Source of the DNA: a virus
DNA length: 64,000 nucleotides
IMG/VR virus record: IMGVR_UViG_3300008119_000039
Coordinates: 20,522-84,521 of that record
Reading direction: 5' to 3' (one strand)
Below, in pieces: positions 4,688 through 49,536 of this stretch. The position numbers and the translations under genes are program-made. Positions within the stretch are counted from its first letter, which is position 1; each line of letters starts with the position of its first letter. The notes beneath the pieces are model-generated. The model ran no database searches. It had not been told where the DNA came from and saw only the letters and a list, made by a program, of their open reading frames with translations.

Positions 4688-6487
4688 ATGGAAAATATTG
4701 TGCATGGCATAAAGGTTGATTATTCTCGTGATGCGTTGTTTGACGAACTAGGAAGAATAAGATTAAAAGAAAGTTACATGAAAGATGACGAAACATCTCC
4801 TCAAGAAAGATTTGCTTTTGTTAGTAGTAAGTTTGGTAGTGATCCTGCCCATGCTCAAAGGTTGTATGACTACTCCAGTAGACACTGGTTGTCTTATTCT
4901 ACCCCAATCCTCAGTTTCGGGAGGAGTAAACGTGGTTTGCCGATCTCATGTTTTTTAAATTATATTGAAGATACAGCGGAGGGTTTAGTTGATAATCTTA
5001 GTGAAACTAATTGGCTTAGTATGCTTGGTGGTGGCGTTGGTATCGGTTTTGGTATACGTTCGGCAGACGATAAGAGCACTGGCGTTATGCCGCACCTCAA
5101 GATGTACGATGCATCAAGTTTGGCTTATCGCCAAGGTCGTACTCGTCGTGGATCTTATGCTGCTTACCTTGATATTAGTCATCCAGATATTATAAATTTC
5201 TTGGAGATGCGTAAACCAACAGGTGACCAGAATATGCGTTGCTTGAACTTGCACCATGGTATTAACATTCCAGATGCATTTATGGAATTAGTTGAGCAAT
5301 CTATGATTGACCCAAATTTCGATGACTCTTGGAATCTAGTTGACCCAGCATCAAACGAAATTCGTGAAACTGTTTCAGCCAAAGAAATGTGGCAACGTAT
5401 TCTAGAAATGCGTATGATGACAGGTGAACCATACATACACTTTATTGATGAATCAAATCGTAAACTTCCACAGTGGTTAAAGGATAAAGGTTTAAAGGTT
5501 CATCAATCAAATCTATGTTCAGAGATTATTCTACCAACAGATGAAAAGCGTACTGCTGTTTGTTGCTTGTCATCACTAAACTTGGAGTATTACGATGAGT
5601 GGAAAACAGATCCTCTTTTCCTTGCTGATATTGCAGAAATGCTTGACAATGTTCTTCAGTATTTTATTGATAATGCACCTTCCACCATCAAAAGAGCTAA
5701 ATATTCCGCCATGCGTGAGCGAAGTATCGGCATCGGTGCGTTGGGTTGGCATGCCTACTTGCAGAAAAACAAGTTACCTTGGGAATCACCAATGGCAATT
5801 GGTCGCAACAAACAAATCTTTACACACATAAGAGGAAAGTTAGATGAGGCAAACAAATTATTGGGATCTAAGCGTGGTGAAGCGTTGGACGCAGTGGGTA
5901 CTGGGAATCGCTTTAGTCATCTTATGGCTATTGCTCCCAATGCTTCTTCTTCCATTCTCATGGGCAATACTAGTCCTAGTATTGAACCTTACCGTGCCAA
6001 TGCTTATCGCCAAGACACTCTATCGGGTTCTCACCTAAATAAAAATCGCTTCTTAGATATTATTATTCAAGAAGAATCCCAGAAAAATAAAGAAGGTTGG
6101 GCAGATGATGTTTGGCGTAGCATTATTGCCAATGATGGTTCTGTTCAGCATCTCGATTGGATGGATCAGTGGACTAAAGATGTTTATAAAACATCAATGG
6201 AGATTGATCAGCGTTGGGTAGTTCAGCATGCTGCAGATCGTCAAGAGTTTATTGACCAAGCCCAATCACTAAACGTATTCTTCAGACCAGACTCACACAT
6301 TAAATACATTCATGCTGTTCACTTTATGGCTTGGAAATTAAAGCTAAAGACGATGTACTACTGCCGTTCTGATAAGATCGCAAAAGCGGATAAAGTTAGT
6401 AAGCGTATTGAACGTGAGGTTATCAAAGAAATCAATCTCCATGCACTAACTGGTGACGCAGATACTTGCTTAGCCTGCGAAGGATAA
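4688..6487 (+). CDS. nrdA: Ribonucleotide reductase class I alpha subunit (no ATP cone)
   Basis: PISCFL, SNLCSEI, AIAPNASSS, TMYYCR, C-terminal CLACEG. Confidence 0.97.
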   Translation: MENIVHGIKVDYSRDALFDELGRIRLKESYMKDDETSPQERFAFVSSKFGSDPAHAQRLYDYSSRHWLSYSTPILSFGRSKRGLPISCFLNYIEDTAEGLVDNLSETNWLSMLGGGVGIGFGIRSADDKSTGVMPHLKMYDASSLAYRQGRTRRGSYAAYLDISHPDIINFLEMRKPTGDQNMRCLNLHHGINIPDAFMELVEQSMIDPNFDDSWNLVDPASNEIRETVSAKEMWQRILEMRMMTGEPYIHFIDESNRKLPQWLKDKGLKVHQSNLCSEIILPTDEKRTAVCCLSSLNLEYYDEWKTDPLFLADIAEMLDNVLQYFIDNAPSTIKRAKYSAMRERSIGIGALGWHAYLQKNKLPWESPMAIGRNKQIFTHIRGKLDEANKLLGSKRGEALDAVGTGNRFSHLMAIAPNASSSILMGNTSPSIEPYRANAYRQDTLSGSHLNKNRFLDIIIQEESQKNKEGWADDVWRSIIANDGSVQHLDWMDQWTKDVYKTSMEIDQRWVVQHAADRQEFIDQAQSLNVFFRPDSHIKYIHAVHFMAWKLKLKTMYYCRSDKIAKADKVSKRIEREVIKEINLHALTGDADTCLACEG

Positions 6488-10032: not shown

Positions 10033-10506
10033 ATGACCAAAAAGATCGCTACAGCGGTGCTTTTTGTCATGTATTTGTCTTCTGCGATGGCTGATCCCAT
10101 CGTGACTGATTCGACTAGTAGAAGTACAACTGATTCTACTTCAAATAGCACTACAACAGTAAAATCCCCTCCACCAACAGCAGTGGCTCCAGCAATCACG
10201 ATTATTAATAGTGATGTTTGCGCTGTAGCTGTATCTGGTGCAACTCAAACTCAAATTCTTGGTATCTCCTTTGGTGCCACGATGACTGATAAGAATTGCG
10301 AAAGATTAAAGTTAGCTCGTTCCACATATGATATGGGTATGAAGGTAGCAGCAGTTGCTATTATGTGCCAAGATGAAAGAGTCTTTACAGCAATGATGAA
10401 TGCTGGAACACCATGCCCAGTAGATGGTAAAATTGGTGAGCAAGCCAAGAAAATCTGGGAAGACAATCCTGATCGTCAACCACAAAAAGTCAAGAGTAAA
10501 GACTAA
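10033..10506 (+). CDS. Exported Cys-containing protein
   Basis: Signal peptide, SPPPTAVAP, NCERLKLAR, AGTPCP; CTAAATA upstream. Confidence 0.7.
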   Translation: MTKKIATAVLFVMYLSSAMADPIVTDSTSRSTTDSTSNSTTTVKSPPPTAVAPAITIINSDVCAVAVSGATQTQILGISFGATMTDKNCERLKLARSTYDMGMKVAAVAIMCQDERVFTAMMNAGTPCPVDGKIGEQAKKIWEDNPDRQPQKVKSKD

Positions 10507-27253: not shown

Positions 27254-27643
27254 ATGGCATACTCAGATAAAGTAATAGATCACTACGAAAACCCACGAAA
27301 TGTGGGTTCTTTCTCCAAAGAAGAGGAAGGTGTAGGAACAGGCATGGTTGGCGCACCAGCGTGTGGCGACGTGATGAAACTTCAAATTAAGGTGGATGCA
27401 GATGGCATTATTAGAGATGCTCGTTTCAAGACATATGGCTGCGGTTCAGCAATCGCCAGTTCGTCGCTGGTTACAGAGTTGGTTAAGGGTATGCACATTG
27501 ATGCTGCTAGTAGCATATCTAACTCTGAAATCGCACAAGAACTAGCCTTACCTCCAGTAAAGATTCACTGCTCAATCCTAGCAGAAGATGCCATCAAAGC
27601 AGCAGTTGCAGATTATAAAGCAAAGAATGATAACACTAACTGA
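27254..27643 (+). CDS. iscU: Fe-S cluster scaffold IscU
   Basis: DHYENPRNVG, APACGD, GCGSAIASS, LPPVKIHCSILAEDA; TATAAATA at 27241. Confidence 0.97.
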   Translation: MAYSDKVIDHYENPRNVGSFSKEEEGVGTGMVGAPACGDVMKLQIKVDADGIIRDARFKTYGCGSAIASSSLVTELVKGMHIDAASSISNSEIAQELALPPVKIHCSILAEDAIKAAVADYKAKNDNTN

Positions 27644-27947
27644 GATTGCAGCAGCAAAGATTACATCTCATCTATCTAAAAGAAAAACTGGAATTGGAAT
27701 TAGGTTAGGTGTTAGAACAACAGGGTGTTCTGGCTTGGCTTACATTTTAGAATACGCTGACAAGTTGGAAGATACAGATGTTGTTTATGAAGATCGTGGC
27801 ATAAAATTGATTGTCGATCCAAAAAGTTTAGTATACCTAAGTGGAATGATAGTTGATTATGTACGAAATGGTCTGAACGAAGGATTTGAATTCAGTAACC
27901 CAAATGAACGTGACCGATGTGGTTGCGGAGAAAGTTTCAGGATATGA
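27627..27947 (+). CDS. iscA: A-type Fe-S carrier IscA
   Basis: TTGCSGLAY, CGCGESF. Confidence 0.93.
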   Translation: MITLTEIAAAKITSHLSKRKTGIGIRLGVRTTGCSGLAYILEYADKLEDTDVVYEDRGIKLIVDPKSLVYLSGMIVDYVRNGLNEGFEFSNPNERDRCGCGESFRI

Positions 27948-28249
27948 TAACAATCACAGAAAACGCTACTGCTAAAATTACAGACTTGCTGGCTGAACAC
28001 CAAGAACCATACATGCGCATTTCAGTTAAGGGTGGTGGATGTTCAGGTTTCTCATACGCATTTGGTTTTGAGTCACTTAAAGATGAAAGTGACTTTGAAC
28101 TCGGTACAGTTCTTGTAGATTCTATGAGCATGCAATACTTGCAGGGTGGTACTGTTGACTATACTGAGGACTTGATGGGTGCTGCATTTAAAGTGTCTAA
28201 TCCAAACGCAACTTCTACTTGTGGTTGTGGCTCCAGCTTTGCAGCATAA
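27944..28249 (+). CDS. erpA: A-type Fe-S carrier, ErpA-like
   Basis: GGGCSGFSY, VDSMSMQYL, NPNATSTCGCGSSF. Confidence 0.88.
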   Translation: MITITENATAKITDLLAEHQEPYMRISVKGGGCSGFSYAFGFESLKDESDFELGTVLVDSMSMQYLQGGTVDYTEDLMGAAFKVSNPNATSTCGCGSSFAA

Positions 28250-28254
28250 AATAC

Positions 28255-28283
28255 TTTACTTTAATTCAATAAAGGTGTATAAT
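28255..28283 (+). promoter_or_regulatory. sigma70-type promoter for tRNA array
   Basis: TTTACTTTAATT...TATAAT, 17-bp spacer. Confidence 0.75.
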
Positions 28284-28431
28284 TCTTACGTGAACTCGAA
28301 AATGATATCCTTAGGTAATAAGCATCTACCACTACTAAGTGGTTGGGGATGTCCACACCCACAGTATACATTTGCGATTGAGTTAGATAGTGGGGTTCTG
28401 TAAATGTCTCAATATAACTAAGGAGAAACAT

Positions 28432-28479
28432 ATGTCAGTAGAAGAATATTGGAAATGGATTCACGATAACGTACAATAA
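28432..28479 (+). CDS. 15-aa micro-ORF MSVEEYWKWIHDNVQ
   Basis: Strong SD AAGGAG at normal spacing; ends 6 nt before first tRNA. Confidence 0.4.
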   Translation: MSVEEYWKWIHDNVQ

Positions 28480-28485
28480 AAATTT

Positions 28486-28570
28486 GCGACTGTGGTGAAA
28501 TAGGTAGACACAAGAGACTTAAAATCTCTCGCTGCAGAGCGTACCAGTTCGATTCTGGTCAGTCGCACCA
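28486..28570 (+). tRNA. tRNA-Leu(TAA)
   Basis: Cloverleaf, long variable arm, AGAGA-CT-TAA-AA-TCTCT, encoded CCA. Confidence 0.95.
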
Positions 28571-28575
28571 AATTT

Positions 28576-28652
28576 GTCTCGTTAGCTCAGTTGGATAGAG
28601 CAACAGCCTTCTAAGCTGTGGGTCAGGAGTTCGAATCTCTTACGAGACGCCA
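28576..28652 (+). tRNA. tRNA-Arg(TCT)
   Basis: ACAGC-CT-TCT-AA-GCTGT, TTCGAAT loop, CCA. Confidence 0.95.
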
Positions 28653-28659
28653 AGTTGTT

Positions 28660-28734
28660 GGGCTGATAGCTTAATGGTAAAGCGTTCGACTCATAATCGA
28701 TTGAGTGAGAGTTCAATTCTCTCTCAGCCCACCA
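28660..28734 (+). tRNA. tRNA(CAT), probably Ile2 (lysidine)
   Basis: CGACTCATAATCG anticodon arm resembling Ile2; G1-C72 paired; CCA. Confidence 0.85.
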
Positions 28735-29212
28735 CTACTTTAATTGGGAAAGGTTTTCTAGAGTTTGCGTATTCTTTTGCAAAAGGAACTGTTGAGCAAC
28801 CATTTGTTTCGTCGCATTTGCCAGCGAATCGCTCGCATGTATTTGTAAGACAGTTAGTTAATTGCCTTACAGGTAATCCAGTTATAATGTTTATAACTTC
28901 TACTTTTGAAAGTATTTTATTTTGTTGATTCCAAACTCTTGCCTCATCTCTAATGAGTTCAGTAGAATCTACGTAATCAACAAAGAAATCTCTGGCATAA
29001 GTAACAGTTTTAAATATACCTAGTTTTGTATGAAGAACATAGTTGTCTTCTTCATCTCGTTCTCGAGTGACTTCTAATTTATGTTTAAAGAAATACTTTT
29101 TATTTTTAATCAGTAAGTTTTGCATTAATGTGTTCATTTCTTGAACATCACCAACGTCACGATGAAAAAGATCTTCTTTTGTGTTTATAAGTTTCATTGA
29201 TAAAAGATACAT
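28724..29212 (-). CDS. Hypothetical protein antisense within the tRNA array
   Basis: 162-aa ORF with SD GGGAG; fills the gap between two tRNAs; four Cys near C-terminus. Confidence 0.7.
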   Translation of the reverse strand: MYLLSMKLINTKEDLFHRDVGDVQEMNTLMQNLLIKNKKYFFKHKLEVTRERDEEDNYVLHTKLGIFKTVTYARDFFVDYVDSTELIRDEARVWNQQNKILSKVEVINIITGLPVRQLTNCLTNTCERFAGKCDETNGCSTVPFAKEYANSRKPFPIKVVVG

Positions 29213-29233
29213 ATTTCTCCCAAGTAGTTTTAT

Positions 29234-29310
29234 GTGGGTGTGCTGCTGAATGGTTAGGCGACGGATTGCAAATCCGTTTTATGCAGGTTCAAGTCCTGTC
29301 ACCCACTCCA
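29234..29310 (+). tRNA. tRNA-Cys(GCA)
   Basis: ACGGA-TT-GCA-AA-TCCGT, U73, CCA. Confidence 0.9.
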
Positions 29311-29319
29311 AAATAATAT

Positions 29320-29357
29320 TTTACTTTAATTCACTTTTAAAGTATAATTGTATTTAG
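29320..29357. promoter_or_regulatory. Plus-strand sigma70 promoter adjacent to a minus-strand late-type box
   Basis: TTTACT-N17-TATAAT 29320-29348; TATTTAG (CTAAATA on minus) 29351-29357. Confidence 0.6.
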
Positions 29358-29369
29358 TTAGTTATTAAT

Positions 29370-29445
29370 GCTCGGTTCGTCTATCGGTCTAGGACACTGC
29401 CCTTTCACGGCAGGAAGAGGGGTTCGATTCCCCTACCGAGTACCA
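29370..29445 (+). tRNA. tRNA-Glu(TTC)
   Basis: CTGCC-CT-TTC-AC-GGCAG, CCA. Confidence 0.95.
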
Positions 29446-29446
29446 T

Positions 29447-29531
29447 GGAGATGTAGGAAAATTGGTAACCCCAGCTGACTGTAAATCAGCCACCTCTGGT
29501 ATTGTTGGTTCAAGTCCAGCCATCTCCACCA
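29447..29531 (+). tRNA. tRNA-Tyr(GTA)
   Basis: GCTGA-CT-GTA-AA-TCAGC, long variable region, CCA. Confidence 0.93.
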
Positions 29532-29532
29532 A

Positions 29533-29746
29533 ATCTCGTCGGTAGCAAACGTGATTGCTATAGCTTACTCAGTTTCATCGAGTCGGAGGTGGTCATCCGT
29601 AAAGCAGAGTGCCCAGTATTTTCCAGGAAAAATACATAAAAGGGAGTCCGAACCACTGGATAGAACTGTAACTATCAAGAGATCAAAACACAGTGACAGA
29701 GTGTGCAACTCAAGTAGGGGCGATGTGGAAGTTGTAGCCTACACCA
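29533..29746 (+). ncRNA. Candidate structured ncRNA ending in ACCA
   Basis: Series of hairpins between two tRNAs; terminal GTAGG/CCTAC stem plus ACCA. Confidence 0.55.
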
Positions 29747-29752
29747 AATTAT

Positions 29753-29826
29753 AGCGGATTAGAGAAACGGTATCTCGGAAGTTTCATATGCTTCAGTTGT
29801 TGGTTCGATTCCAGCATCCGCAACCA
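29753..29826 (+). tRNA. tRNA-Met(CAT), initiator-like, atypical
   Basis: A1xA72 mismatch, A11-U24, anticodon arm GAAGT-TT-CAT-AT-GCTTC, CCA. Confidence 0.8.
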
Positions 29827-29843
29827 AACATAAGTAGTAGTGA

Positions 29844-29927
29844 GCGCAAGTGGTGGAATGGTATACACGCTGGTCTTAGAAGCCAGTTCCGAAGGGATTG
29901 AGAGTTCGAGTCTCTCCTTGCGCACCA
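29844..29927 (+). tRNA. tRNA-Leu(TAG)
   Basis: CTGGT-CT-TAG-AA-GCCAG, variable arm, CCA. Confidence 0.95.
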
Positions 29928-29954
29928 AATAACAATAACTGAAAGAGGTTAATC

Positions 29955-30131
29955 ATGGCAACAAAAGGTGGTAATCAAAAAACTCGTAAAGCAGATCCAA
30001 TGAAAACCAAGACTGGCAAAGATCGTCTTGGTCCATTAAATGTTGCACAGTTGACTGCATTAAAAGAAAGAACTTCTCATAAGAAAACAATTGCCAAGAT
30101 TCAAAAAGAAATAGATCGTAAATCAAAGTAA
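29955..30131 (+). CDS. 58-aa highly basic protein within tRNA array (not in ORF track)
   Basis: SD GAGG; MATKGGNQKTRKADPMKTKTGKDRLGPLNVAQL... Confidence 0.65.
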   Translation: MATKGGNQKTRKADPMKTKTGKDRLGPLNVAQLTALKERTSHKKTIAKIQKEIDRKSK

Positions 30132-30156
30132 AGAATATTCCGCAGTAGTTTAGTTT

Positions 30157-30232
30157 GCCCCAGTAGCTCATTTGGTAGAGCAACTGATTAGTAATCAGTA
30201 GGTGGGCGGTTCGAATCCGTCCTGGGGCACCA
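30157..30232 (+). tRNA. tRNA-Thr(AGT)
   Basis: ACTGA-TT-AGT-AA-TCAGT; G1-C72 and C2-G71 Thr identity pairs; CCA. Confidence 0.92.
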
Positions 30233-30236
30233 ATAT

Positions 30237-30310
30237 GTCTCGATGGTGTAATGGCAGCATAAGTGTCTCCAAAACACTTGGTTGGGGTTCGAGTCCCTAT
30301 CGGGATGCCA
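30237..30310 (+). tRNA. tRNA-Trp(CCA)
   Basis: AGTGT-CT-CCA-AA-ACACT, G73, CCA. Confidence 0.92.
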
Positions 30311-30315
30311 AATAT

Positions 30316-30389
30316 GCAGGTAAGCCTAAGGTGGGACGCCAGCCTTCCAAGCTGCGCTGAGTGGAGTTCGATTCTCCCTACCTGCTCCA
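30316..30389 (+). tRNA. tRNA-Gly(TCC)
   Basis: CAGC-CT-TCC-AA-GCTG, U73, CCA; D arm atypical. Confidence 0.85.
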
Positions 30390-30409
30390 ATTTTTTAATG
30401 GAGTGTAAT

Positions 30410-30892
30410 ATGAAACGTATCGACATCGATGAAGTAAAACAATTCATCGAAGCACAGAGTCCCAGCACTAAGATCTATATCGGTGGTGACTCTGACAGAT
30501 TTCTTATCGGAAAAGATTGGTACGCAGATTACACACTTGCCATTGTTGTTCATATTAATGGTAATAATGGATGTAAAATATTTGGCGAAGTTCATCGTGA
30601 GCGTGACTACGACCAGAGAAGAGATAAACCACGTATGCGTTTAATGAATGAAGTTTATAAGATTGCTGACTTGTATTTAAAATTACATGATGTATTAGAA
30701 GATCGTCAGGTAGAAGTACACCTAGATATTAACCCAAACGAAATGTATGGTTCGTCATGCGTTATCAATGAAGCAGTTGGATATATTCGTGGAATGTGCA
30801 ACGTAATTCCAATGGTTAAACCAAATGCATTCGCTGCTAGTTACTGTGCAGATCGTATGAAACAAATTATGTCTGACCGTAAGGCAGCATAA
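30410..30892 (+). CDS. RNase H-like YkuK (DUF458) family protein
   Basis: IYIGGDS, RLMNEV, EVHLDIN, KPNAFAASYCAD; track ORF extends into tRNAs, true start taken as 30410. Confidence 0.8.
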   Translation: MKRIDIDEVKQFIEAQSPSTKIYIGGDSDRFLIGKDWYADYTLAIVVHINGNNGCKIFGEVHRERDYDQRRDKPRMRLMNEVYKIADLYLKLHDVLEDRQVEVHLDINPNEMYGSSCVINEAVGYIRGMCNVIPMVKPNAFAASYCADRMKQIMSDRKAA

Positions 30893-48238: not shown

Positions 48239-48891
48239 TGAAAACATTTATACATCATGATCTACCCAAACTTGAACGTGACACAAAATCTGATGGTACG
48301 AGATTATACAAAACCCCATCAGGTAAATCCTATCCCTCCGTTACGACAGTTACAGGATTGCACTCAGCAAAGGGGATCATGGAATGGCGAAACAGAGTCG
48401 GAGAAGCAGAAGCCAACCGAATCTCTGGAAGAGCCAGTGCGAGAGGCACAAGAATCCACCAACACTGCGAAGACTTTCTCCTTGGAGAACATGTTGAGCC
48501 AGATATGTTTGATGCAGAGATGTTCAACTCAATCAAACCCCTGCTTGACCAAGTCGACAACATTCACTGCTTGGAAGATGCGTTATATTCTGACCACTTA
48601 CAAGTCGCTGGAACAGTGGACTGCATCGCAGAATTCCAAGGTAAACTTAGTGTTATAGATTTTAAAACATCAAGCAAACCAAAAGATCGTGATGATATTC
48701 ATAACTACTTTATGCAGACTGCAGCTTATGCTGTTGCATTTGAAGAACTAACAGGTATTCCTATTGGCAGACTTGTAATCATTATGGCAGTAGACAATGA
48801 TGATCCTCGTTGGTTTATTGAAAAGCGAGATAATTGGATTGGTGGATTTAAAAAGCTAAGATTAGACTATAAAAATAAATTTGCTATATAA
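48238..48891 (+). CDS. PD-(D/E)XK (Cas4-like) exonuclease
   Basis: YPSVTTV, RGTRIH, AGTVDC, IDFKTS, YFMQTAAY. Confidence 0.88.
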   Translation: MKTFIHHDLPKLERDTKSDGTRLYKTPSGKSYPSVTTVTGLHSAKGIMEWRNRVGEAEANRISGRASARGTRIHQHCEDFLLGEHVEPDMFDAEMFNSIKPLLDQVDNIHCLEDALYSDHLQVAGTVDCIAEFQGKLSVIDFKTSSKPKDRDDIHNYFMQTAAYAVAFEELTGIPIGRLVIIMAVDNDDPRWFIEKRDNWIGGFKKLRLDYKNKFAI

Positions 48892-48909
48892 ATAACTATA
48901 AGGTATAAT
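48881..48909 (+). promoter_or_regulatory. Nested early and late promoters for tmRNA
   Basis: TTGCTA-N17-TATAAT with TATAAATA (48887-48894) inside the spacer. Confidence 0.7.
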
Positions 48910-48914
48910 TAAGG

Positions 48915-49308
48915 TTATTGCTGTATGAAGCAAAGAGAAAGGTGTTCTGGACGAGGGTTCGATTCCCTCCACCTCCACCAGAAAGGATTTTATGGAAAAC
49001 TTGATTTTGTTAGTATTAATTGTAGTGCTAAACGTATACTGGGTTTATAGTTTAGTTACTTATGATTGGAGTAATTTTGAAAAAGATCAAGAGCAAGCCA
49101 AGAAAGATTTTTTCTGATGGGGGTGACTAGGTTTCGACAGGGCAACAAGTAAACAAGTGGACAGCACGGGAATGTGAAACCCGTAGGATTGGGGAAACTC
49201 GGTCGCAGAAGCAAAAAACGTAAATGCAAACGACGCACAGTTCGCTTTAGCAGCCTAAACACTGCTTAGGGTTTCGATAGGTTTCCTCGTAACAGAATAA
49301 CCTATCAC
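48915..49308 (+). ncRNA. ssrA: Circularly permuted (two-piece) tmRNA gene
   Basis: Acceptor piece with T arm and CACCTCC-ACCA ends 48980; coding piece starts GGGGGTG at 49119; G3.U70; tag ANDAQFALAA* 49226-49258. Confidence 0.92.
48992..49117 (+). CDS. 41-aa membrane peptide inside the tmRNA intervening segment (not in ORF track)
   Basis: SD AAAGGA right after CCA; MENLILLVLIVVLNVYWVYSLVTYDWSNFEKDQEQAKKDFF*. Confidence 0.65.
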   Translation: MENLILLVLIVVLNVYWVYSLVTYDWSNFEKDQEQAKKDFF

Positions 49309-49329
49309 TAATTCTAAAAGGATATTCAA

Positions 49330-49536
49330 ATGAAGAAATTTTTAATTGCACTAAACTTAGTCATCTGGTCATTTGTTGGTTATCAAGTTACCGCATATGC
49401 AGCTGAACCAGCAAAGAAAGAAGTCCCTGCTGGGCAAAATGATAATTGCGTAAAGAAAGACAAGAATGGTAAGTGCCCACCTCTACCAAAGAGTGAAAAG
49501 CCAACACCTAAGAAAAAAGTAGAAGATAAGAAGTAA
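49330..49536 (+). CDS. Small exported basic protein
   Basis: Signal peptide to AYA; CVKKDKNGKC. Confidence 0.6.
   Translation: MKKFLIALNLVIWSFVGYQVTAYAAEPAKKEVPAGQNDNCVKKDKNGKCPPLPKSEKPTPKKKVEDKK

Follow-up and report, generated by a model that had tools for sequence, protein, structure and literature searches.

A candidate pseudoknotted RNA gene in the tRNA array of an IMG/VR phage, and the phage RNA family to which it belongs

A structured element between tRNA-Tyr and tRNA-Met

The stretch considered here, referred to below as the window, comprises 64,000 nucleotides (nt) of the IMG/VR virus record IMGVR_UViG_3300008119_000039, and its transfer RNA (tRNA) array contains, between tRNA-Tyr and tRNA-Met, an element that is almost certainly a real structured RNA gene of a family defined below by a covariance model, R1 (Table 1). 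The source record of 84.5 kilobases (kb) has an estimated completeness of 53%, and the phage encodes a DNA primase, a ribonucleotide reductase and T4-type baseplate and tail proteins. ARAGORN places the tRNA array from 28486 to ~30390, and the local gene order is Glu-Tyr-RNA-Met-Leu. The 3' end of tRNA-Tyr directly abuts the first base of the RNA gene (gap 0), and 221 bases (29532-29752) separate tRNA-Tyr from tRNA-Met. An original prediction, made from the letters of the window, had proposed at this place a multi-hairpin RNA, distinct from tRNA, richer in G+C than the spacers and ending in ACCA. The ARAGORN coordinates bear out its placement, the element has a G+C content of 0.44 against visibly A/T-rich array spacers, and the complementary words that had been listed are all found in the sequence, as is the terminal GUAGG...CCUAC followed by ACCA (29714-29746).

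The element has no catalogued counterpart. There was no match to a tRNA, a transfer-messenger RNA (tmRNA) or any other Rfam 15 model in 29532-29752, either at gathering thresholds with the whole window or at E<=10 with 29400-29900, and no RF00005 match or ARAGORN gene was found there even at E<=10, in agreement with the non-tRNA character originally proposed. The lone tmRNA_permuted match at E<=10 (16.2 bits, 29504-29591) overlaps the T-arm of tRNA-Tyr, and the Rfam models of tRNA, tmRNA and tRNA-like structures (TLS) had no match inside the element at this threshold. Neither a ribozyme class nor RNase P RNA is among the seven Rfam 15 matches listed for 29400-29900 at E<=10, and the GOLLD and ROOL models matched nothing in the window (gathering thresholds), the element (E<=10) or the two types of copy at locus L145 (E<=5). 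Comparison with 80 related loci, fetched via a neighbouring RNase H-like protein (PF04308), gave nothing by blastn (word size 7) or nhmmer, and no relative was found through a neighbouring protein of 162 amino acids (aa). Among 50,697 cultured-phage records, blastn of the window region matched only tRNAs, and blastn with three subtypes of the RNA found no match.

A family of related RNAs

Relatives surfaced only through reading the sequence after tRNA-Tyr in related loci. Four distinct gaps in this position (L023, L032, L069 and L028), 190-200 nt long or starting with such a unit, resemble the window and have in common with it the start AAUCYCGU, the first hairpin, a CGGN/NCCG hairpin, the word GACAGRGU and a 3' hairpin of the form GGGC...UGRAA...GUAGC, the outer stem of which varies by compensating changes among the five. 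A scan of IMG/VR with a motif for the 3' part yielded at least 120 stretches, on contigs of a few kb up to 525 kb, and the stretches listed include 95 distinct copies with the full 5' part. The R1 model was built from 32 copies less than 90% alike and has 198 positions and 33 nested pairs. It matches the window over model positions 1-198 of 198 (E ~1e-35), and a second copy is absent from the 84.5-kb record. R1 gave 108 matches in 100 sources, 10 in 82 sources and 24 in 27 sources. The family core is present in the window in its entirety, namely the 5' AAUCYCGU, GACAGRGU and GGGC...UGG...GUAGC. Among 90 distinct copies GGGC and GUAGC are invariant, and GACAG, GU and CUCA are kept in at least 97%, second-type copies (see below) included.

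The family is uncatalogued, being absent from Rfam 15. No published description of it was found in the full-text literature, with the limit that the supplementary candidate lists of PMC10690425 may hold fragments. That IMG/VR survey (Fremin et al. 2023; PMC10690425) reports 8,495 candidate structured RNAs of 29-151 nt, based on covariation in viral intergenic regions and including tRNA-like and tRNA-adjacent candidates; at these lengths, none of them can be the whole 190-220-nt RNA, and a fragment of it might be among them.

Ten R1 matches, of 35-60 bits, are full-length second copies of a distant type, each in a locus that also contains a copy of the first type. The second type agrees with the first in its 5' tail, P1 loop, GACAG core and 3' hairpin (helices are named in the next section), but its middle differs and its P8 loop is GUGGU. 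Some phages appear, on this comparison, to keep two paralogues of the RNA. A cut-down copy was also seen on the minus strand of L187 (~10060-10204), with only the 3' domain (GACAG to GUAGC plus tail); it is joined to sequence that in L186 precedes a full copy, and looks like an internal deletion.

Fold and covariation

The family fold comprises eight helices (P1-P8) and four pseudoknot-type pairings (PK0-PK3), and the bases mapped for each of these in the window are complementary, so that all of them can form there. Alignment A2 was made by MAFFT only, from 32 copies that are less than 90% alike. Standard pairs fill 91.1% of its 1,400 cells, compared with 31.5-38.8% once the 3' partners are moved by 1-3 columns; both sides change in 30 of the 45 pairs (in 4-15 with moved partners), and none of 500 shuffles reached any of five measures. 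In alignment A3, which holds 90 distinct copies, standard pairs occupy 93.3% of 3,912 cells (slid partners, 32.3-37.9%), and both-side changes occur in 36 of the 45 pairs. Covariation among homologues, which had been set beforehand as a test of the predicted RNA, is in this sense present. Helices left out of the model also show changes on both sides, with PK0 paired in 98.9%, PK1 in 81.2% and PK2 in 79.0%; the PK1 figure is low because one edge pair forms in two subtypes only.

In PK0, C29537-G29538 of the window pair with G29551-C29550 of the P1 loop, which holds CGU across the family; the corresponding 5'-tail bases of the family are C6-G7, and column pair 6/26 is CG in 79 copies, GC in 3, AU in 2 and UG in 1. 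PK1 joins the P3 loop (29589-29593, GUGGU) to the strand after P4 (29652-29656, ACCAC). Its pairs 61/126, 62/125 and 64/123 change on both sides (CG to UA, AU to GC and AU to UA), and GGUGGU/ACCACU in the window compares with GGCGGU/ACCGCU in L142 and L148. The clearest case among the extra pairings is PK2, between the P5 loop (ACUGU, 29665-29669) and a strand just before GACAG (ACAGU, 29690-29694): four of its five pairs change on both sides, and elsewhere the paired words are AUCUC/GAGAU, UCCCU/AGGGA and UCUUU/AAAGA. The 3' strand of PK2 in the window is shifted one column further on relative to the main type. In PK3, the 5' tail would pair with the loop of the 3' hairpin (GUGGAA in the window), through U29534-C29535-U29536 and A29729-G29728-G29727 of the P8 loop. 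The family counterpart, U3-C4-C5 of the 5' tail with GGA of the P8 loop, is paired in 98.5% of 264 cells and changes from CG to UA in 6 distinct copies and from UA to AU in 3. Among the nested helices, P7 and P8 are paired in 99.7% and 95.9%, with three of four pairs changing on both sides in each. P4 varies in length among copies; its three basal pairs covary, pair 185/276 with five pair types, and the base of the window P4 is poorly aligned.

Six of the nine stems in the original prediction correspond to helices of the family fold: TAGCAA/TTGCTA is P1, ACTC/GAGT is P2, CGGA/TCCG is P3, GTATTTT/AAAATAC is the tip of P4, GATAG/CTATC is P5 and GTAGG/CCTAC is P7. The remaining three are not conserved: relatives lack them, among these the nearest subtype (L142 and L148). 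CCAGT/ACTGG clashes with PK1 and ACAC/GTGT with PK2 and P6, and the 5' strand of the supposed closing stem, ATCTC/GAGAT, belongs to the 5' tail that appears to pair with the P1 and P8 loops (PK0 and PK3). Other candidate pairings were tried and rejected. A long-range helix proposed by RNAalifold (7-9/175-177) hardly varies, and it was not adopted because G7 is needed for PK0, which covaries. A pairing of CACACA, in the strand that follows P5, with UGUGUG of the P8 region was discarded, CACACAG being unchanged in copies without UGUG in the P8 region, and UGGAA of the P8 loop was not accepted as a T-loop, given that the second type has GUGGU and that the 5' tail is the partner of this loop. Lists of covarying columns drawn up by all-against-all comparison were too noisy, because the subtypes differ at many sites simultaneously; only the 4/210 lead was kept, and was then tested as PK3.

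An open reading frame (ORF) of 67 codons with a GTG start (29551-29754) overlaps the element. Its 67-aa product has no Pfam match. In the copies the longest closed ORF has a median length of 40 aa and reaches at least 60 aa in 2 of 89; ORFs are not conserved across the copies, and P4 changes length freely. The coding-type conservation that the original prediction had named as a counter-indication is lacking in this ORF, which is not kept among the copies. These comparisons show that what selection keeps is a fold, not a reading frame.

Table 1. Positions of the RNA gene, its parts and neighbouring features in the window, and of related elements at other loci
Feature	Position	Strand	Details
Promoter-like TTTACT-17-TATAAT	29320-29348	+	Ahead of tRNA-Glu; consensus scan, 10/12 matches
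tRNA-Tyr(GUA)	29447-29531	+	CCA encoded; ARAGORN; Rfam tRNA 51.6 bits
RNA gene, divergent member of R1 family	29532-29746	+	Full-length R1 match 29532-29750, 109.3 bits
5' tail AAUCUCGU	29532-29539	+	PK0 and PK3 strands
P1 hairpin UAGCAA/UUGCUA, loop ACGUGA	29543-29560	+	7/7 pairs (helices 2-3) change on both sides
P2, 3 base pairs (ACU/AGU), 11-nt loop	29567-29583	+	100% of cells paired; 3/3 pairs change on both sides
P3 hairpin CGGA/UCCG	29584-29599	+	98.9% paired; family form CGGU/ACCG
P4 variable hairpin, tip GUAUUUU (29616-29622)/AAAAUAC (29629-29635)	29604-29648	+	Longer than in most copies
P5 hairpin GAUAG/CUAUC	29659-29676	+	96.6% paired; 4/4 pairs change on both sides
Core GACAGAGU and P6 hairpin GAGU/ACUC	29695-29711	+	Core nearly invariant; P6 97.8% paired, family GAGU/RCUC
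3' hairpin: P7 GUAGG/CCUAC, internal loop GG/UAG, P8 CGAU/GUUG	29714-29742	+	
Single-stranded tail ACCA (29743-29746) and spacer AAUUAU before tRNA-Met	29743-29752	+	From sequence
tRNA-Met(CAU)	29753-29826	+	ARAGORN and Rfam
Second-type copies	L145:2152-2358(-), L120:5784-5996, L091:7654-7858(-), L085:6371-6582, L114:7402-7603(-), L156:4308-4532(-), L105:12534-12745, L125:4260-4467(-), L198:8241-8460, L192:8058-8284		
Element of ~126 nt	L006:622-747, L020:911-1036, 3' part of L062:863-1091, 5' part of L065:1755-1980		

Placement in tRNA slots and the 3' tail

The RNA is always on the same strand as the tRNAs. Of 91 distinct copies, 88 have a same-strand tRNA no further than 1 kb away, and the other three have none within 1 kb of available sequence. 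The 3' end of the preceding tRNA lies -1 to +3 nt from the model start in 53 of 90 copies (exactly 0 in 30), and conservation begins 0-1 nt after the tRNA CCA in 46 of 90. On the 3' side, 60 of 90 copies are followed by a tRNA that starts 8-17 nt past P7, mostly at 9-10 nt. Among 54 copies with an abutting upstream tRNA, this tRNA is Tyr in 24 and Glu in 18; downstream, among 61 copies, it is Asp in 38 and Tyr in 10. The window RNA occupies such a slot, 0-3 nt after one tRNA and with the next ~9-11 nt past P7; counted from the last pair of a 4-base-pair P7, tRNA-Met starts 11 nt on. In 7 of 87 copies, a near-consensus TTGACA-17-TATAAT ends 15-16 nt before the RNA start. The RNA can head a transcription unit and is therefore argued to be a product in its own right. 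The promoter-like site ahead of tRNA-Glu in the window is a possible start of a Glu-Tyr-RNA-Met-Leu transcript; the array of the window has 10 promoter-like sites against 6.0 +/- 2.6 in shuffles, which is not clearly above chance, and no terminator-like site was found in 28200-30600.

The 3' tail bears on the suggestion, made in the original prediction, that the acceptor-like CCA end could make the RNA an aminoacylation substrate. Among 90 distinct copies, four have a stem followed by A and CCA, namely those of the window, L146, L103 and L175, and one second-type copy (the second copy of L091) has a near-form, ACACCA, so that CCA is present in 4-5 of 90 in total. The commonest tails are UCCUAA (20) and UACUAA (19), and the second type has mostly C-ACU; the tRNAs just upstream in the same phages encode CCA. 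As judged from these tails, the pattern that is kept appears to be N-(A/C)-C-(U/A), and CCA itself is not kept. The family thus lacks the conserved 3'-terminal NCCA expected of an aminoacylatable TLS. The ACCA end is not a family trait, and charging is therefore unlikely; as a function of the family, aminoacylation is improbable on the sequences compared, and the loop of the 3' hairpin appears to pair with the 5' tail. Trimming and CCA repair could possibly convert a UCCU end to CCA: RNase T comes to a halt at CC, and ends in CC are completed by the CCA-adding enzyme.

In other relatives an unrelated RNA-like element of ~126 nt occupies the slot right after tRNA-Tyr and ends ...GGCTAAAGTTCGTAATGCCAC (Table 1). 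In L086 (~6300-6370) this element sits directly 5' of a copy of the knotted RNA.

Presence in RNA libraries and distribution among phages

The stretch is present, whole or in part, in 20 of the 24 public sequencing runs listed, and six of these 20 runs are recorded as RNA. Contigs covering the element occur in four metatranscriptome runs from four studies. In three studies RNA-library contigs agree with the window at zero differences, over 29557-29735 (X15), 29529-29735 (X16) and 29550-29700 (X17); a fourth has the same flanks and a different middle of 101 letters, corresponding to the variable P4 region. One X17 contig (29390-29538) spans the junction of tRNA-Tyr and the RNA, and in a relative an RNA-library contig runs from 29534 directly on to 29751, which makes it a natural variant that lacks the cassette. 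These contigs show presence in RNA libraries, which is short of transcription. The contig ends at 29735 were considered as RNA ends and rejected; they are assembly-graph breaks, because 30-letter overlaps (29706-29735) connect them with the next contigs. Positions 29200-29226 and 29956-30000 are uncovered in all four runs and were not used as evidence.

At E<=0.001, R1 found no match in four near-complete genomes of close relatives, with completeness of 96-100%, terminal repeats in three, and an RNase H-like protein 83-94% identical to that of the window. The RNA is absent from these close relatives and is therefore accessory. It is present in 9 of the 80 related loci, within 4 kb of the RNase H-like protein. 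The closest relative (L002:2228-3199) has tRNA-Tyr, tRNA-Asp, an 815-nt gap and tRNA-Thr, followed by the same Met-Leu pair, and the window is without tRNA-Asp(GUC), which follows tRNA-Tyr in most relatives; comparison of the two suggests that the tRNA array is mosaic between the window and its closest relative. Among 185,579 prokaryote species (one genome each), the motif occurs in six stretches, of which one is a true R1 match, located at the end of a 3-kb contig of a freshwater metagenome-assembled genome; the other five have no R1 match and were set aside as chance occurrences. On this evidence the RNA is confined to phages.

Interpretation

Overall, we think it fairly likely, on sequence evidence, that 29532-29746 is the gene of a stable non-coding RNA of ~210 nt, a divergent member of a large accessory family that occupies tRNA slots in uncultured freshwater phages. 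This retains from the original prediction a structured non-coding RNA gene within the tRNA array, positioned for release by tRNA processing. The RNA would be made within the tRNA precursor or, in some phages, from its own sigma-70-type promoter. Its 5' end would be set by 3'-end maturation of the preceding tRNA, and its 3' end by an RNase P cut at the next tRNA, 8-17 nt past P7, followed by exonuclease trimming; in the window, the 3' end of the RNA precursor would result from RNase P cleavage at the 5' end of tRNA-Met. More tentatively, the RNA may act in trans: folded into a compact particle, it would bind a protein or an RNA of the tRNA-handling or defence machinery. Binding would be through the exposed 3' helix, of ~12 stacked layers, and the 4-nt tail N-(A/C)-C-(U/A), and the clamp of the 5' tail on the P1 and P8 loops, with the protruding P7/P8 helix, could be a recognition surface. 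Its role might be that of a host-specific fitness factor, through binding or as a decoy, rather than a core function; since near-identical phages do without the RNA, a host-specific helper is preferred to a core role in processing.

Several observations weigh against the proposal of a stable, folded RNA gene or limit what can be built on it. Taken singly, the element has a minimum free energy of -48.7 kcal/mol; its dinucleotide shuffles give -48.56 +/- 4.14 (z -0.03), and 97 of the 200 fold as well or better. The 93.3% paired cells of A3 come from rows fitted to the nested helices, and hence biased towards them, although A2 was aligned without such fitting, and close kinship among many copies means that cell counts overstate the number of independent events. 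The pairing of the 5' tail with the P8 loop in PK3 is suggestive, not proven, because there are few independent events, perhaps two, and covariation cannot separate intramolecular pairings from pairings between copies. Logan contigs give no starts, ends or strand, and RNA libraries can contain DNA; contigs that cross the 3' end into tRNA-Met (29706-29780 and 29706-29831) would be expected equally from a precursor or from DNA. Finally, absence from close relatives shows dispensability only.

That there is no RNA gene here at all, and that the element consists of decayed tRNAs, a 67-codon protein gene or chance stems, is hardly credible: the overlapping ORF and the chance-level fold of the single sequence would fit such a view, but the compensatory changes in 36 of 45 pairs, the R1 match, the lack of conserved ORFs and of a Pfam match, and the absence of any tRNA score at E<=10 speak against it. 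A bolder and rather doubtful reading is a new class of small, closed-knot phage RNA that needs no reading frame and serves for anti-defence or takeover, in which the 3' helix, the tail and the loop-to-tail elbow imitate the upper half of a tRNA and trap or redirect a host enzyme. Candidate targets would be a tRNA-cleaving defence nuclease, RNase P or the CCA-adding enzyme, and such mimicry, if true, would explain an accessory cassette in tRNA arrays and its presence or absence between near-identical phages. A chargeable mimic, in which the 3' helix with ACCA is matured like a tRNA end and is aminoacylated or serves as a substrate of the CCA-adding enzyme, is less probable still. In the window the sequence after P7/P8 is indeed A, CCA and then an A-rich spacer, just as at the neighbouring tRNAs, three other copies are alike, P7, the internal loop and P8 together have the ~12-layer length of the acceptor/T-arm stack, and T4 rnaD ends in ACCA; however, most copies end in UCCU or UACU although the tRNAs of their arrays encode CCA, and the hairpin loop, which is without a UUCRANN T-loop, pairs with the 5' tail, and Rfam gives no tRNA, tmRNA or TLS match at E<=10.

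Few RNAs of ~200 nt combine several interlocked pseudoknots with invariant unpaired bases, and those that are understood have mostly proved to be ribozymes, riboswitches or parts of large machines. The size of the RNA, its four pseudoknot-type pairings and the invariant unpaired GACAG, GGGC and GUAGC, a complexity typical of ribozymes and riboswitches, could be those of a catalytic core that cleaves itself at the 5' edge, so releasing the preceding tRNA, or that acts on array transcripts, and the onset of conservation 0-1 nt past the tRNA CCA and the clamping of the 5' tail by two pairings would suit this. We consider a ribozyme unlikely nonetheless, as Rfam 15 gives no ribozyme or RNase P match at E<=10, arrays with 2-10-nt spacers need no such help, close relatives manage without the RNA, and the X17 contig crosses the junction at which cleavage would occur. 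Just as unlikely, in our estimation, is an RNA-only homo-oligomer like GOLLD or ROOL, in which some of the pseudoknots would be contacts between copies. Those RNAs, of ~580 nt or >800 nt, are 3-4 times larger than the window RNA, no GOLLD or ROOL model matches it, and all four extra pairings fit one molecule; on the other side, covariation does not tell pairs within a molecule from pairs between molecules, and the RNA has the tRNA-island setting of GOLLD and ROOL (PMC12286853) as well as loop-to-strand pairings. A cis-acting element of the tRNA operon, serving its neighbours (mostly Glu, Tyr and Asp) as a processing platform, insulator or antitermination signal, is a slightly poorer candidate still. 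It would account for the tight, ordered, same-strand placement, but a near-consensus promoter puts seven of 87 copies at the head of a transcription unit of their own, the RNA also lies beside other tRNAs or, in three of 91 copies, with none within 1 kb, and relatives express the same tRNAs without it; to our knowledge, a 200-nt knot also far exceeds the needs of known processing signals.

Comparison with known systems and significance

The family shares its setting with two long-standing puzzles, the species 1 and 2 RNAs of T4 and the GOLLD/ROOL RNAs. Like the window RNA, T4 rnaC (species 1, 139 nt) and rnaD (species 2, 119 nt) lie inside a tRNA cluster on the tRNA strand. The rnaD gene starts 3 nt past the tRNA-Arg CCA; its 3' end reads ...GCGCACCA and leads into an A/U spacer, a pattern that the window shares (NC_000866). 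Unlike the window RNA, rnaC carries a true T-arm (GGTTCGAATCC); both T4 RNAs are shorter, and PK0-PK3 are without a described T4 counterpart. R1 had no match at E<=1 in the T4 tRNA region (locus L082, which holds rnaC and rnaD), and the analogy with T4 drawn in the original prediction thus extends to placement and not to homology. We know of no function assigned to rnaC or rnaD. In the tyrT operon of E. coli, tRNA processing frees another stable RNA, RtT (RF00391), from the part of the transcript that follows tRNA-Tyr; it is cellular and unrelated, with no RtT match among the Rfam matches listed at E<=10. With the acceptor/T-arm minihelix of tRNA, the window RNA shares a 3' helix of ~12 layers and a 4-nt single strand (ACCA), and the pairing of its P8 loop with a CC-containing strand may be loosely like the contact between T-loop and D-loop; unlike a tRNA or TLS, it is without a T-loop sequence, D arm or anticodon arm. 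With GOLLD and ROOL it shares a phage origin, a tRNA setting and multiple pseudoknots. GOLLD and ROOL are RNAs of phages and prophages, "often near tRNA islands", multiply pseudoknotted and of unknown function, which form cages and have no known protein partner (PMC12286853).

The family is abundant in the phages of lakes, as the scan of IMG/VR indicates, and has no blastn match among the cultured-phage records. It illustrates that the "gaps" of phage tRNA arrays hold genes missed by standard annotation. Near-identical phages with and without the RNA provide natural pairs for asking what benefit it brings, and the RNA is small enough for direct structure work and simple in-vitro tests.

Other features of the window

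Further along the tRNA array, on the plus strand at 30316-30386, lies a tRNA-like gene whose anticodon is UCC (Gly) and whose D arm and variable region are unusual; at 26.8 bits it stays slightly below the Rfam cut-off of 29, and ARAGORN missed it. Similar DNA in an Aeromonas phage carries a tRNA-Gly annotation. Just 5' of the array, 27254-28249 (+) contains Fe-S cluster assembly genes, one of the NifU_N/IscU type and two of the Fe-S_biosyn/IscA type. A permuted (two-piece) tmRNA is found at 48867-49349 (+), with 120 bits for tmRNA_permuted and 96 bits for beta_tmRNA, and this hints at a betaproteobacterial host; the tag peptide of the phage tmRNA is ANDAQFALAA.

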